A DNA stretch of 13,807 bases from a virus. Lineage: Duplodnaviria > Heunggongvirae > Uroviricota > Caudoviricetes. The position numbers and the translations under genes were made by a program. Positions 1 to 8,901 of the stretch are shown here, piece by piece (the stretch's first letter is position 1; every line of letters begins with the position of its first letter). The notes under the pieces are model-generated. The model was not told the origin of the DNA and ran no database searches. It saw only the letters and a list, made by a program, of their open reading frames with translations. The DNA is taken from IMG/VR virus record IMGVR_UViG_2778261065_000014. One strand, given 5' to 3'.

Positions 1-600
<600 letters not shown>

Positions 601-1264: not shown

Positions 1265-1963
1265 ATGAAAAAAGAACTTGAAACCATACTGCCTGAGTTT
1301 GGTGAGGCAATTCGCCCTTACGTTTATAGTTACGTAACAGCAAACAAAAATGCCAATGCCAAGCACGTCCTGTTTATGGCTGGTTCGCCTGCTGCAGGTA
1401 AAACCGAGCTCTTAAATCGTCTTTTAGAACAACATGGCATCACAAACATTGTTCGAATTGATGCTGATGATTTTCGCTGGTGGTTCCCCTACTACAATGA
1501 AGAGAACTCTGTGGACTATCAGAGACCTGCCTCCAGAATGGTCGATTTTATCTACAAAAAAGCGCTATCTGAAGGCTATCCCATTGTTATGGACTCTACT
1601 TTCTCCAGTATAGGTATTGCGGAGAGAAACTTTGATCTGGCCCTGAAGGCTGGTTATCAGGTAGCACTGAATTACGTCTATTTTGATCCGGCTTACGCGT
1701 GGGTTTTTGCCCAAGCCCGCTCTCGTAAGGTTCCGTTAGAGGTTCTTAAAGCGAACTTTTTCAAGAGCAGAGAGACCATTGAACATATGCTCGCGAAATA
1801 TGCAGGCCTATTTACACTCAATGTTTATCATCGACGGGAAGATCCTGAAAATGATGGTCAGTTCGTGGTCGACTATACTCCTAACGTGACCCTTGAAAAC
1901 TGGACTACCTCCCATAGCTGCCCATATTCAGACGTTAGCGATCTAGCGCATTTAGGTGTATAA
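1265..1963 (+). CDS. Zeta-toxin/PezT-family P-loop kinase (UDP-GlcNAc kinase-like toxin fold), 232 aa
   Basis: Walker A GSPAAGKT (residues 40-47) followed 18 residues later by IVRIDADDFRWWFPYY, which mirrors the zeta/PezT catalytic block (I-I-D-x-D-x-F-x-x-x-x-P). Size matches PezT-like toxins. The RBS is weak. Confidence 0.8.
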   Translation: MKKELETILPEFGEAIRPYVYSYVTANKNANAKHVLFMAGSPAAGKTELLNRLLEQHGITNIVRIDADDFRWWFPYYNEENSVDYQRPASRMVDFIYKKALSEGYPIVMDSTFSSIGIAERNFDLALKAGYQVALNYVYFDPAYAWVFAQARSRKVPLEVLKANFFKSRETIEHMLAKYAGLFTLNVYHRREDPENDGQFVVDYTPNVTLENWTTSHSCPYSDVSDLAHLGV

Positions 1964-1988
1964 TAAGTGTCCTATCTAAGGAGTGTAT

Positions 1989-2615
1989 ATGTCTGTTAAA
2001 ACTGAAGCCATTAAACCAGCTGCTGAAATTTCGTTGTTCGATGCATTCGGACCTAACGTGAGCGAGCGGGTACAAGCCATCAACCGGAAGGCCGCTGAGC
2101 TTTCTATGGCTGATATGGCTCAGGTAATGGACGTGACATTATCGTCTAGGAAGAAACTGGAAGTAACTGCTGAGAGCAAATATATTCTCGATTTGCCTCA
2201 ATGGCTAGAAGTCAATGCACGGAAACCTGGAGTTTCTTTTGACATGAAAGCATACACTTCTGTTGAAGTTAACAAGATGCATGTTCCTGACTTTCGCCAG
2301 TTCCTTCCTGTAGGTGCAAATATGTTGCATACCTATTCACCAATCGGTAAAACGGGCCTGCAAGGAATTCATGATTATTTAATCGGTGCTGTTTCATCTA
2401 AACTTCATCACTTGCAAGGTGTCGGAGTTGATGAGGGCACGTTTAAAATACTTATCCGCTATGAAGATGCTAAAACGGGTGCTCCCCGCAATGATATAGT
2501 TGAAGCTGAGTCGACAATTAGCCCAAGTTCTTTCACTAGGCTCAAGCCCCGTGTGAAAAAACTTCGCAGAAAAGGTCATGAAATGGCGATGCATGCACTA
2601 ATTGCCAAAAAATAG
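1989..2615 (+). CDS. Hypothetical protein co-transcribed with the zeta-like kinase (candidate cognate antitoxin/immunity or effector partner), 208 aa
   Basis: AAGGAG at 1978-1983 lies 5 nt before the ATG at 1989 (the ORF track starts at the in-frame GTG 1983). It sits 25 nt after the kinase stop and is followed by an intrinsic terminator. No recognisable catalytic motif. Confidence 0.7.
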   Translation: MSVKTEAIKPAAEISLFDAFGPNVSERVQAINRKAAELSMADMAQVMDVTLSSRKKLEVTAESKYILDLPQWLEVNARKPGVSFDMKAYTSVEVNKMHVPDFRQFLPVGANMLHTYSPIGKTGLQGIHDYLIGAVSSKLHHLQGVGVDEGTFKILIRYEDAKTGAPRNDIVEAESTISPSSFTRLKPRVKKLRRKGHEMAMHALIAKK

Positions 2616-2627
2616 TAAGCCCTTAAC

Positions 2628-2660
2628 AAAACCTCACTCGATTGTGAGGTTTTTGCTTTC
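2628..2660 (+). terminator. Rho-independent terminator closing the kinase operon
   Basis: Perfect 10-bp stem AAAACCTCAC (2628-2637) / GTGAGGTTTT (2644-2653) with 6-nt loop TCGATT, running into a T-rich tail, 13 nt after the stop at 2613-2615. Confidence 0.7.
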
Positions 2661-3153
2661 TGGCGTTCTAAAAGTCAATCACTCCAGCTCACCAGCGCGG
2701 TTAATCTCTAAAACCGATTTAGTTTTCGGCATAGTGCCCTTCGTCGTCTCTTTCTGCGTACATCAAACAACATCTACGGCCCATAGCGGATCACCATCAG
2801 CATGCAGCCACTGACTGGTTAAAGTCTCCTTTTCGTTTATCTTAGCAAGCTGGTACTGCGTGTGGATCCCGCCCATTTCTGCATACTGTCGAAAATCGAT
2901 GAGATGGCCAGTCGTGTTTGTTATTGGTCTATTTTTGAAAACAACTATCAATGCTATTGGTCTGTTCTTCGTTAATTAATATGCAATCCTTTCATGACAC
3001 AGGGCTACTGTTACAGCCCTGACAACCTTAGACTTCAATCGATTCAGAGATCTCTAACGCATCATCGCCCCGTTGAACTCACAGCGATAAGTAGACGCTG
3101 GCGGCAATAACACAGAAGTATAGCGGGAATTTGAACCACATAATTTATGTTTG

Positions 3154-3606
3154 TTAGATGGCTTTGCTTCGATATTCAATTTCTAAAATCGCCTTTGTCA
3201 TTGCCGCAATAGTTATAGCTTCTACCATAGTTAATTCAGGCCTGTTCAAGCTTCCGTGTCCAGCAGTAGGTAGTTTGTTGCGTAAATCATAAATATCTTT
3301 AACAATATCAATAAGATTCTTAGGTAATTTTGACATTTTTTCGAACTGTTTAAAAAAACCACCCAATGACTCATTTGCCACATTCGGGTTTTGAGTGATT
3401 TCCTTCGCCATAGTTTCTAGAATATTAGAGGCTGCGTGCAGTGCACCCGCAGGGTCATTATTATCCAAGCAATTATTCATTCTATCTATTTGCTGAATGA
3501 TATTTGGATGCAATCTCTTTAAGTAATCACTAGCCAATTCTTCATTGAAGTTTTTGACACTTTCAAAAACATCGCAATCTAAATAAAATTTAGGATTGAC
3601 TGACAT
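3154..3606 (-). CDS. Hypothetical protein (150 aa); probably the C-terminal part of the same interrupted gene; possible abortive-infection/HEPN-like protein (speculative)
   Basis: In frame with 3676-4020. No good RBS before the ATG at 3604-3606. Contains DLRNKLPTAGHGS (R-x7-H), which only loosely resembles the HEPN R-x4-6-H motif. AT-rich. Confidence 0.55.
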   Translation of the reverse strand: MSVNPKFYLDCDVFESVKNFNEELASDYLKRLHPNIIQQIDRMNNCLDNNDPAGALHAASNILETMAKEITQNPNVANESLGGFFKQFEKMSKLPKNLIDIVKDIYDLRNKLPTAGHGSLNRPELTMVEAITIAAMTKAILEIEYRSKAI

Positions 3607-3675
3607 CCATGTATATTTCCAATCATTTTCTAAATTATCTTTTTCCGCACTACGCCTGCCAGTATCCTGATCTAT

Positions 3676-4020
3676 CTAATCAACATATTTACACATATAA
3701 TCGGCGTAATAGTGTAAATATCTAAATGATATTTCTGGGCAAAAATTACTAACTGATGCAAGGCCGCCATATTCTTTTGTAGTAACTGTTGGGACTTCTT
3801 CATCACATAAATATGAGAAACTAGTTCTTTCCCCAAATTCGCCCAACTCTTTTTCTTTCCTAGTTGCCATACCAGCTATCATATTGATGCTTGAGAGCAA
3901 AACTACACTCTGATAGTACCGAGGACATCTGTATGAACTAGCATATGGGCATTTTGATGATGCTTTACGATTAATACGCTCTTTTTCCCACCAATTTTTA
4001 TCAGGAATAATTCTTTGCAT
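3676..4020 (-). CDS. Hypothetical Cys-rich protein (114 aa); probably the N-terminal part of a gene interrupted by the in-frame TAG at 3676-3678
   Basis: ATG at 4018-4020, TAG at 3676-3678. Same reading frame as the ORF 3154-3606 with no other stop between them. Locally AT-rich. Confidence 0.5.
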   Translation of the reverse strand: MQRIIPDKNWWEKERINRKASSKCPYASSYRCPRYYQSVVLLSSINMIAGMATRKEKELGEFGERTSFSYLCDEEVPTVTTKEYGGLASVSNFCPEISFRYLHYYADYMCKYVD

Positions 4021-4484
4021 AATTTATGCTACTATCTCACGAGTGAATGAATGTTTAGCCTTCTGCACAGTTTATCAGTTCCGGCATACCTACTGCTACC
4101 CCACTGATTCAACTTTAAGTTATGGATTAAAGCGATTCGGTTTCGCTAGATGACACACTAGTGTTAACTTATGGATAAAAATTTATCACTTAAAATTAAC
4201 TAATGACTGTAGCGACCAAAAGTGTGCCAGAATGTTATTTTCGTCTGGCCTATTATCAATCTAATTACCCAAATTAAAGTTACTCTCCTTCATCAGCAAA
4301 AAATAAATACGCCTGTTCACTTTCTCAAAGTGTTCCTGTGTTATTTTTAAAGTTAACAACGCCGTCTATTCGTCCAAATGTACAACAAACATCAGACTCT
4401 GGCACAACGCTGACAATGAGAATAGTTCTAGCCCTGTGCCACAGAAATGTCAATTCACATATGTATTAATGCTCTTTAATCTCG

Positions 4485-4907
4485 TCACTTCAATAAATAG
4501 CGAACATTTCCCTGATAAAATGCCAACACTCGCTGCATTACTTCACTTTCCAGACACTCGCGACAAACCATGTTATGGCGACTATCGTAGCGACGAATTT
4601 CTCCGTCAGGTAATGACCAGATAAGGTCCGGATCAACCATAGACGGTTTCTTCCCCTTTGCCCTCGATAGTTTTTTGCGGGCGTTTTGCCAGTCCTTACG
4701 AGCCTGTTCTGACGGGAATAACCCATAGCCAGAGTTGTATACATCGCCACTGGCAACCAGCTCCCAGGCAAGAACGCTAATCAGATATCTTGTCGCACCT
4801 GTTTTAGCTTCCAGCTGTCGTAACGTCTCGCGCCCACTCTGGCGTACGAGTGCAACAACCTGTCCCTTAATTTTTTCCCGCTCTTCTTGTGTAAAAACTT
4901 TTGCCAC
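4485..4907 (-). CDS. Hypothetical phage protein (140 aa), last gene of the rightward replication operon
   Basis: GTG start at 4905-4907 preceded by a perfect AGGAGG 4 nt upstream (minus strand). Lies 40 nt downstream of the O-like gene stop. No motif recognised. Confidence 0.7.
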   Translation of the reverse strand: MAKVFTQEEREKIKGQVVALVRQSGRETLRQLEAKTGATRYLISVLAWELVASGDVYNSGYGLFPSEQARKDWQNARKKLSRAKGKKPSMVDPDLIWSLPDGEIRRYDSRHNMVCRECLESEVMQRVLAFYQGNVRYLLK

Positions 4908-8149: not shown

Positions 8150-8901
8150 TCCATCCATGTTTACGGGATAGATAAAGATATATCGCTTCGAAACCATCGA
8201 CATGGTTTGGATAGCCTTCCTCAGCAGCAAGGTTATCCCCAAAACATTCAAGAATATAATTTAAACGCGCTGTTTAATAATGAATCTTCCAGCGAGTCTA
8301 ATTTAGTTTGCTGACCATTTTAATTTTATCCTCCATTGAGGTTACTGGTTGAGAATGGAGACCACACGTGACAGCGCGTGGTCGTGCGCCGGACACGGAT
8401 AAGAATCCGGCACAAACAGTTTACTGAAAGGATATATCCCTGAAAAGTCAGGGCATAACGCGAAAGCGCACGGCGAAGTCATTCCTCCCTTTGTTGTGTA
8501 CCACTGACATCTTCGTCTGTGCGCTTCCGGTTGTGGCAATCCGCGAAATGGCGCGGCGGTAAGTATGGCGGGGTTATTCCTTCCCCGTTGAGGACACCGG
8601 GTTGTCAGGTTGACCATACGCTTAAGTGGCAACCCCGCTGCAACGCCCTCTGTTATCAATTTTCTGGTGACGTTTGGCGGTATCAGTTTTACTCCGTGAC
8701 TGCTCTGCCGCCCTTTTTAAAGTGAATTTTGTGATGCGGTGAATGCGGCTAAGCGCACGCGGAACAGTTAAAAAGGCCAGTTGACTTCCGTATTGGTTCT
8801 TATGGGTGGGTTCTCTGTATCCGGCGTTAATTGTTAACTGGTTAACGTCACCTGGAGGCACCAGGCACCGTATCACAAAATTCATTGTTGAGGACGCGAT
8901 A

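Follow-up and report, generated by a model that had tools for sequence, protein, structure and literature searches.

The two open reading frames (ORFs) that share a minus-strand frame at positions 3154-4020 of the window (the whole 13,807-nucleotide stretch of the virus record IMGVR_UViG_2778261065_000014) very probably represent the nonsense pseudogene of a single 288-codon gene carried on a mobile 1.49-kb cassette, the intact protein being a one-gene candidate of the abortive-infection type. As judged from sequence comparison, both ORFs are parts of one 288-codon gene that has been inactivated by a single GAG to TAG change. The ancestral coding sequence (CDS; 3154-4020, minus strand) is predicted to have encoded an N-terminal domain with four invariant cysteines (Cys4) followed by a C-terminal HEPN domain.

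Read on the minus strand, positions 3154-4020 comprise 289 codons; the only internal stop is the TAG of codon 115 (positions 3676-3678), and the last codon is TAA. According to the ORF list and the translation, the upstream ORF (3676-4020, minus strand) comprises codons 1-114 plus the stop and begins with the ATG at 4020; 23 sense codons (116-138; 3607-3675, minus strand) separate the TAG from the next in-frame ATG, a spacer that once belonged to the N-terminal domain and whose homologous segment in the intact proteins is residues 116-138; and the downstream ORF (3154-3606, minus strand) contains 150 codons (139-288), for the tail of the N-terminal domain and the entire HEPN domain. This is the arrangement that had been described in an earlier reading of the window, made from its letters and ORFs (hereafter the sequence-only reading). 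The other two minus-strand frames of the same interval contain 16 and 36 stops, around 23 stops are expected per 288 codons at the base composition of the gene (P for one stop or fewer, 1.2e-9), and a frame with one stop or fewer was reached in 0 of 20,000 shuffles. The sequence-only reading had also remarked that the downstream ORF has no convincing ribosome-binding site (RBS). This holds for ATG3606, which is not preceded by a Shine-Dalgarno sequence, but fails as a discriminator: the 25 nucleotides ahead of ATG4020 equally lack one, so that the missing RBS cannot tell ATG3606 from a true start. In a promoter and terminator scan of positions 2600-4600, the number of sites was no higher than in shuffled sequence.

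The nature of codon 115 is revealed by intact orthologues, in which the DNA alignment and codon table place a glutamate codon (GAG or GAA) opposite the TAG. The intact 867-nucleotide genes of loci L002 and L003 align with the split gene without gaps; the TAG corresponds to GAG or GAA in L002, L008, L009 and L003, GAA being the codon of strain NCTC9064. The mutation is thus a G to T change of the first base of the codon. A 96%-identical stretch with one 867-nucleotide CDS is held by ten other E. coli records, and one further E. coli strain has an 867-nucleotide CDS that is 80% identical. Accessions of intact alleles are WP_032317446.1 and WP_016569949.1. At the protein level, 88 homologues were retrieved, the full-length ones measuring 286-296 amino acids and coming from E. 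coli, Salmonella, Serratia, Hafnia, Pectobacterium, Vreelandella, Shewanella, Vibrio and Pseudomonas; a two-gene organisation was found in none of these homologues. Position 115 lies within the YVDEID motif, and in the alignments at least 90% of the proteins sharing the N-terminal domain keep the glutamate there, the remaining homologues having, rarely, Asp, Ala or Gly. The codons beyond the stop amount to 174 of the 288. A nonsense pseudogene is expected to have lost over half of the protein and to have co-linear intact orthologues in which a sense codon stands in place of the stop, as is the case here. The uninterrupted orthologue that the sequence-only reading had proposed to search for and to align across the TAG thus exists, with GAG at the site, and the central claim of that reading, one ancestral gene of about 288 codons killed by a nonsense mutation, is borne out by it. 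That reading would have been contradicted by homologues occurring consistently as two genes or by the lack of any intact homologue; homologues are single genes and intact ones are abundant. One database protein, P0001 (L004 619-1485; representative of a 141-member cluster), was first taken as a CAG intermediate or revertant on account of its Gln115. This was ruled out: contig L004 reads TAG, and the Gln115 is therefore a gene-calling artefact, the TAG allele having been translated with a code in which TAG is sense.

A sequencing or assembly artefact in a gene that is really intact would need no more than a single-base difference from a sense codon, yet there is practically no chance that it accounts for the TAG, since this codon is identical in 21 of 21 sequence-checked copies from independent assemblies. 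The check for assembly error proposed in the sequence-only reading has in this way been settled. The 21 copies are the window, three complete E. coli chromosomes (H1-H3) that are 100% identical over the query, and 17 copies that were read individually (five complete genomes, one metagenome contig, eight loci reached through the 150-amino-acid product and three through the 114-amino-acid product); they include eight complete genomes from several continents (complete genomes from Ecuador, USA, Japan, Viet Nam and Korea are among them). All 21 copies belong to one lineage; ARS-C301 and EC261 are examples of strains with the TAG allele. Every chromosomal TAG locus with enough flanking sequence occupies the same slot, between a DUF977 gene and a convergent pair formed by a zeta-toxin-family gene and an ORF of 208-210 amino acids. 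Within this lineage, a second degenerative change has been found in the window, where codon 63 is GGG (Gly; 3832-3834, minus strand) and all intact alleles and the other TAG sub-lineages have TGG (Trp). The W63G of the window haplotype affects a residue that is family-invariant in alignments A2, A4, A5 and A6. In a sister TAG lineage, it is the near-invariant R34 (at least 90% of the family) that has been replaced, as R34Q. These post-TAG changes would fit decay after inactivation, although the counts are small.

Since exactly one stop interrupts an otherwise open 288-codon frame, it might be supposed that readthrough of the TAG occurs, either naturally or with a suppressor tRNA, and that a toxic full-length protein is kept scarce or is made only in suppressor hosts; scarcity would be in keeping with the toxicity of a HEPN effector. 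We regard such conditional or leaky expression as very improbable. A search for tRNA genes across the window found none, and natural E. coli isolates are not usually known as carriers of amber suppressors. Moreover, the stop replaces the conserved glutamate, position 115 is not a stop anywhere else in the family, and a stop retained in diverged homologues, as readthrough or recoding would demand, was not found: it is confined to one lineage of more than 99% identity. The loss of Trp63 is likewise unexpected if the full-length product mattered. The suggestion of the sequence-only reading that the gene is expressed only in an amber-suppressor background is consequently not sustained, given the missing tRNA gene and the second change at an invariant tryptophan.

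The position of the break within the protein is also informative. The Cys-rich N-terminus noted in the sequence-only reading is in fact a separate and widespread domain of around 160 amino acids, overlooked in that reading, and the TAG cuts through its middle. This alpha+beta domain (3532-4020, minus strand) was delimited from alignments A4-A7 and is modelled with a predicted local distance difference test score (pLDDT) of 90-97. In the model, codon 115 opens the helix 115-128 of the domain and Met139, encoded by ATG3606, lies within the strand 138-143; since both fall within the fold, the break is inside the N-terminal domain and not at its boundary near residue 165. The 114-amino-acid product ends before helix 115-128 and strand 138-143 and also lacks helix 152-163 and the fourth cysteine, C149; it is short of one third of the domain and unlikely to adopt the native fold. 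Met139 is merely one of the internal residues of the protein, also present in intact enterobacterial alleles, and an N-truncated HEPN piece would be made at most in trace amounts because an internal Met start without a Shine-Dalgarno sequence is all that is available; low-level reinitiation at ATG3606 is possible. These features bear on a functional split, in which the 114-amino-acid N-fragment and the 150-amino-acid HEPN fragment would act together in an antitoxin/toxin-like manner, or the HEPN fragment would act by itself. The 150-amino-acid ORF does contain a complete HEPN domain, RefSeq lists both halves as proteins, and the allele is frequent, the 150-amino-acid products being found on around 700 contigs (P0091 on 613 and P0090 on 90), compared with around 54 contigs for the intact protein of E. 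coli and around 434 for that of Salmonella. Additionally, among the five TAG alleles first compared there are four amino-acid changes in the N-part plus spacer and one, conservative, in the 150-amino-acid part (V239I). However, the 4-versus-1 difference is not significant, the frequency is explained by descent of one lineage in one prophage slot, the break lies in mid-fold and not between domains, the putative second start is an ancestral internal methionine, no homologue elsewhere is organised as two genes, and the N-fragment has lost either the invariant W63 or, in the sister lineage, the near-invariant R34. A functional split is on these grounds improbable, if slightly less so than readthrough, and the pseudogene of a single gene is the interpretation followed below.

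The pseudogene belongs to an AT-rich cassette of 1,492 bp (2916-4407), formed by the gene with 238 bp downstream and 387 bp upstream, that is common to P2-like prophages of other E. coli strains. In blastn comparisons of the window with L002, L008 and L009, only positions 2916-4407 match, at 95.4-95.8% identity. The guanine-plus-cytosine (GC) content is 36.7% at 3601-3660, in agreement with the value of about 37% counted in the sequence-only reading, 35.2% across the gene and 36.6% at 3000-4484, versus 46.2% in the rest of the window. Horizontal acquisition of the gene, which had been proposed in that reading from GC content, is therefore supported by sequence comparison, since the lambdoid prophage of the window and P2-like prophages share the cassette at 95.8% identity, and the cassette appears to move between prophages. 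In the P2-like prophages, it is located in a cargo hotspot, bounded by the portal gene Q and by the DinI/gene A side, where the neighbours vary by strain (an AAA ATPase with an HNH gene, an LPO_1073-family gene or a P-loop NTPase). In NCTC9064, the gene lies between an ATP-dependent nuclease/helicase pair (Gabija-like) and a DUF4297/AAA pair, and remoter homologues from Pseudomonas, Salmonella, Pectobacterium and Shewanella adjoin integrases, Mrr, DUF4145 or prophage tail genes. Among the alleles that were read, the intact ones of E. coli and Salmonella are in P2-like or other contractile-tail-type prophages (with baseplate or sheath genes) or in an island; the lambdoid copy is dead. Judged by gene neighbourhoods, which are hotspots and islands of mobile elements, the genomic context is that of defence cargo. 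Searches of GenBank phages by blastn and tblastn gave no matches.

Some observations on neighbours and carriers may be added here. In the P2-like prophages, the intact gene is always accompanied by the same convergent 654-nucleotide gene (L002 5247-5900; L008 and L009 4247-4900), which has a weak match to the PADLOC model RTasHEPN (E=5e-5) and is absent from the window. The window ORF at 1983-2615 was compared with it and shows no similarity; hence no shared system includes these neighbours. Plasmid matches H33-H36 (92-102 kb; E. fergusonii, E. albertii and E. coli) encode a full-length homologue of 58-59% identity, and four of the seven plasmid matches overall are predicted to be non-mobilizable; the 92-102-kb carriers could be phage-plasmids.

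The C-terminal domain has a clear HEPN fold, a four-helix up-and-down bundle of around 110-130 residues; the helix and strand positions given here are from the secondary structure of the AF2 (AlphaFold2) model m9d9f8766130c. For the RNase site of the HEPN superfamily, an Rx4-6H motif that closes helix 3 and in which a polar residue follows the arginine has been described, together with an Ex3[KR] motif (PMC3710099). In the family described here, the predicted catalytic motif is R247-N248-x6-H255 (RNKLPTAGH; 3256-3282, minus strand), in which R247-N248 stand at the end of the third HEPN helix (234-249) and H255 at the start of the loop after it. The second conserved acidic motif, E202-x3-K206 (ETMAK; 3403-3417, minus strand), is held by the second HEPN helix (190-209) and conforms to the helix-2 Ex3[KR] pattern. 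Across 34 full-length homologues, none of R247, H255, G256, E202 and K206 varies. The 150-amino-acid ORF of the window scores 23.2 bits (E=7.5e-5) against Pfam Abi_C (PF14355), whose gathering score is 24; precomputed PF14355 matches exist for several members of the family, and one distant relative sharing the N-terminal domain reaches E=2e-14. The sequence-only reading had pointed out a Cys-rich N-terminus and a DLRNKLPTAGHGS motif in the product, both of which are present, and its loose R-x7-H likeness to HEPN nucleases has been strengthened by the fold, the weak Abi_C match and the invariance of R247 and H255. Among curated defence-protein models, PADLOC-DB 2.0.0 gave no significant match, the only hits being PDC-S32 (E=0.008, residues 201-268) and, for homologue P0034, AbiJ (E=0.0017, over the HEPN motif). 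Neither the full-length protein nor the N-domain profile had a match in PDB sequence searches, and NCBIfam and a Foldseek search of BFVD were likewise negative; PHROGs gave weak matches only, and a literature search on the WP_ accessions retrieved nothing.

The closest known systems are the AbiJ HEPN proteins (PF14355; AbiJ-NTD1-5), whose HEPN domains carry diverse N-terminal domains that have been proposed as infection sensors or as antitoxins restraining the toxin domain (Anantharaman et al. 2013, PMC3710099). As in AbiJ, the family consists of single polypeptides with a C-terminal HEPN that scores on Abi_C/AbiJ models, its N-domain recurs ahead of TIR, PLD/HKD and restriction endonuclease (REase) domains, and its members occur in mobile elements and defence islands. 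Unlike AbiJ, the Abi_C scores of its E. coli proteins are 13.7-23.2 versus the gathering score of 24 bits, its R-H spacer is 7 residues rather than 4-6, and its N-domain has neither a Pfam match nor similarity to the N-part of the PADLOC AbiJ profile, a comparison that covers the published AbiJ-NTDs for which a model exists. Prophage-encoded single-protein HEPN abortive-infection systems have also been described, namely HepS of the Gifsy-1 prophage of Salmonella and Tha of S. aureus prophages, and the HepS and Tha papers report that the carrier prophage must avoid triggering its own system. Neither has sequence similarity to this family beyond the fold, and the copy in the window is dead; moreover, HepS has 218 amino acids, lacks a Cys4 N-domain and senses the siphovirus tail-tip protein J. 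Other single-gene HEPN defences of E. coli, such as DARNA/PD-T7-3, resemble the family in coupling a HEPN RNase to a non-catalytic sensing domain and in belonging to the accessory genome. DARNA, with 456 amino acids, has an N-terminal HEPN with an R-x4-H motif and a Pds5-like helical C-terminal sensor of single-stranded DNA, and was rejected as a member of the same family on account of its reversed domain order and unrelated sensor. By analogy, the most likely mode of action of the intact protein is that of other single-polypeptide HEPN abortive-infection proteins; the family is uncharacterised and fits the known class in which a sensor domain is joined to an AbiJ-type HEPN, with an N-domain that has no public model. 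As to the split copy, it resembles the ordinary nonsense pseudogenes of cryptic E. coli prophages in having one premature stop, later degenerative changes and a prophage with insertion sequence (IS) insertions and deletions, and nothing material sets it apart except the annotation oddities, the halves given as two proteins and the TAG read as Gln.

Several observations weigh against the proposal of a dead copy of an abortive-infection-type gene. The spacer of 7 residues between R and H is one above the published range, and the intact L002 and L003 proteins score 18.9 and 13.7 bits on Abi_C, below the gathering score. The family is a candidate for a defence role, and PADLOC models match the HEPN motif weakly at most. 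Polarised against the P2-type alleles and NCTC9064 as outgroup sequences, the changes on the stem of the TAG clade number around 6 nonsynonymous and 7 synonymous, a ratio from which the TAG would be fairly recent and the stem branch mostly under constraint; and the 5 nonsynonymous (E12K, R34Q, W63G, R123L, V239I) versus 2 synonymous changes within the clade are too few for a significant test of relaxed selection. Finally, the commonness of the TAG allele could mean that it is tolerated or useful; spread with a single prophage lineage would explain the abundance of a dead allele.

A mechanism can be proposed along the following lines. By the G to T change, Glu115 (GAG) became TAG within YVDEID, the most conserved motif of the N-domain, with W63G coming later in the sub-lineage of the window. 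In the intact protein, the N-terminal Cys4 domain may serve as a sensor or auto-inhibitor, and the C-terminal AbiJ/Abi_C-type HEPN would be a metal-independent RNase acting through R247/N248/H255 and E202. Recognition of a phage-derived cue by the N-domain, or loss of an inhibitory contact, would release or assemble the HEPN domains; paired HEPN domains would form a composite active site and cut RNA, probably tRNA or messenger RNA (mRNA), and the growth of the infected cell would stop. The dead copy would persist only by hitch-hiking in a vertically inherited, decaying Qin/Rac-like prophage. That the lambdoid prophage inactivated a self-targeting system is speculation, drawn from one lineage.

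The N-terminal domain has a distribution of its own. Its four invariant cysteines are C24 (3949-3951), C32 (3925-3927), C94 (3739-3741) and C149 (3574-3576, all on the minus strand), and its motifs are CPYAxxxxCPRYYxS, NFCPE, YVDEID and DWxxxW. A profile search recovered 1,044 clusters at 90% identity, or 499 representatives at 50% identity with lengths of 154-819 amino acids, in which the domain is nearly always N-terminal. Among 86 long members, 19 have a TIR domain as C-terminal partner and 5 more a TIR of the CAP12/Pycsar type; further partners are a DpnII-MboI REase, PLD, SEFIR, Schlafen/AlbA_2, Abi_C and GGDEF, and proteins of around 200 amino acids end in a single hydrophobic helix or in a short KPGxxGxxxNL tail. 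In Pfam-A, the domain matched nothing at E<=1, and nothing at E<=0.1 in nine relatives; Pfam models exist for only some AbiJ-NTDs. The protein P0115, composed of the N-domain only, gave no match against PADLOC. Because its fusion partners are TIR, PLD, REase, HEPN, SEFIR and transmembrane segments, the domain is marked as a putative sensor of conflict systems. A bolder suggestion is that it is an undescribed Cys4 module that senses infection, or metal or redox state, and gates interchangeable suicide effectors (HEPN, TIR, PLD, REase, SEFIR, membrane helix) in one-gene defence systems, and that the copy in the window was knocked out because a system usually borne by P2-like and other contractile-tail-type prophages, and triggered by lambdoid phages, turned self-targeting on arrival of the cassette in a lambdoid prophage; we consider this rather doubtful. 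The distant homologues P0070-88 had been assumed to share the HEPN half, an assumption that was rejected, the N-terminal domain being the common part. Other observations refer to single members. In some relatives sharing the N-domain (P0081 at residues 168-183, P0070-P0078 at residues ~185-205), the domain is followed by a RHIM-like (weak PF12721) or 'MGDQYNVTGQIGAIGPNAK' stretch, which recalls bacterial amyloid-signalling motifs. The TIR-fused P0085 is encoded in a cluster (L011 5140-13426) borne by an integrative and conjugative element, together with HNH, NOV_C, NucS_C, NERD, SAM-synthase-like, NUDIX and WYL-regulator genes, and this cluster is a dense island of candidate defence genes; the 288-amino-acid gene located upstream of the TIR fusion (L011 7132-7998) was rejected as a paralogue.

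In terms of significance, the pseudogene is ordinary and shows only that a lambdoid prophage lineage lost the function. The intact relatives, however, constitute a one-gene HEPN candidate in the cargo region of P2-like prophages, the best-validated defence hotspot of E. coli, and defining the ligand of the N-domain would add a trigger-recognition module for which Pfam has no model and which counts around 500 representatives at 50% identity. Annotation is affected as well. RefSeq lists the upstream half as WP_135276011.1 and the downstream half as WP_000115767.1, both as hypothetical proteins and with no pseudogene flag; these halves and the falsely intact P0001 deserve to be flagged as pseudogene products. 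Across L001, L005-L007 and the window, RefSeq/PGAP has four 114-amino-acid and two 150-amino-acid WP_ accessions in five genomes.

The element around the split gene is a Qin/Rac-like lambdoid prophage, as follows from the combination of DicF, dicB and a ydaT/cro/cI module. Its genes comprise a cI/LexA-like repressor, Cro, YdaT, a helix-turn-helix (HTH) replication gene, DUF977, DicB, the small RNA DicF, RusA, Q, an excisionase and an integrase; DicF (8662-8713, plus strand) matches Rfam RF00039 with 76.7 bits versus a gathering score of 48. Since sister copies bear IS insertions in the HTH_36 replication gene (L027 and L029) or deletions (L030 and L032), the prophage is decaying. At the left edge of the window, a fragment of an IS3-type transposase (rve, rve_3, rve_2; 12-458, plus strand) adjoins a hok/gef remnant. 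Finally, a gene for a Zeta_toxin-family P-loop kinase (1265-1963, plus strand; PF06414, E=7e-29) is followed by the 210-amino-acid ORF (1983-2615, plus strand), which has no match in Pfam or PADLOC. The two may act as a toxin-antitoxin or as a defence pair. Lying convergent to the split gene, they are linked to it in most loci of one retrieved set of TAG alleles, and the pair is shortened in L030 and missing in L032.

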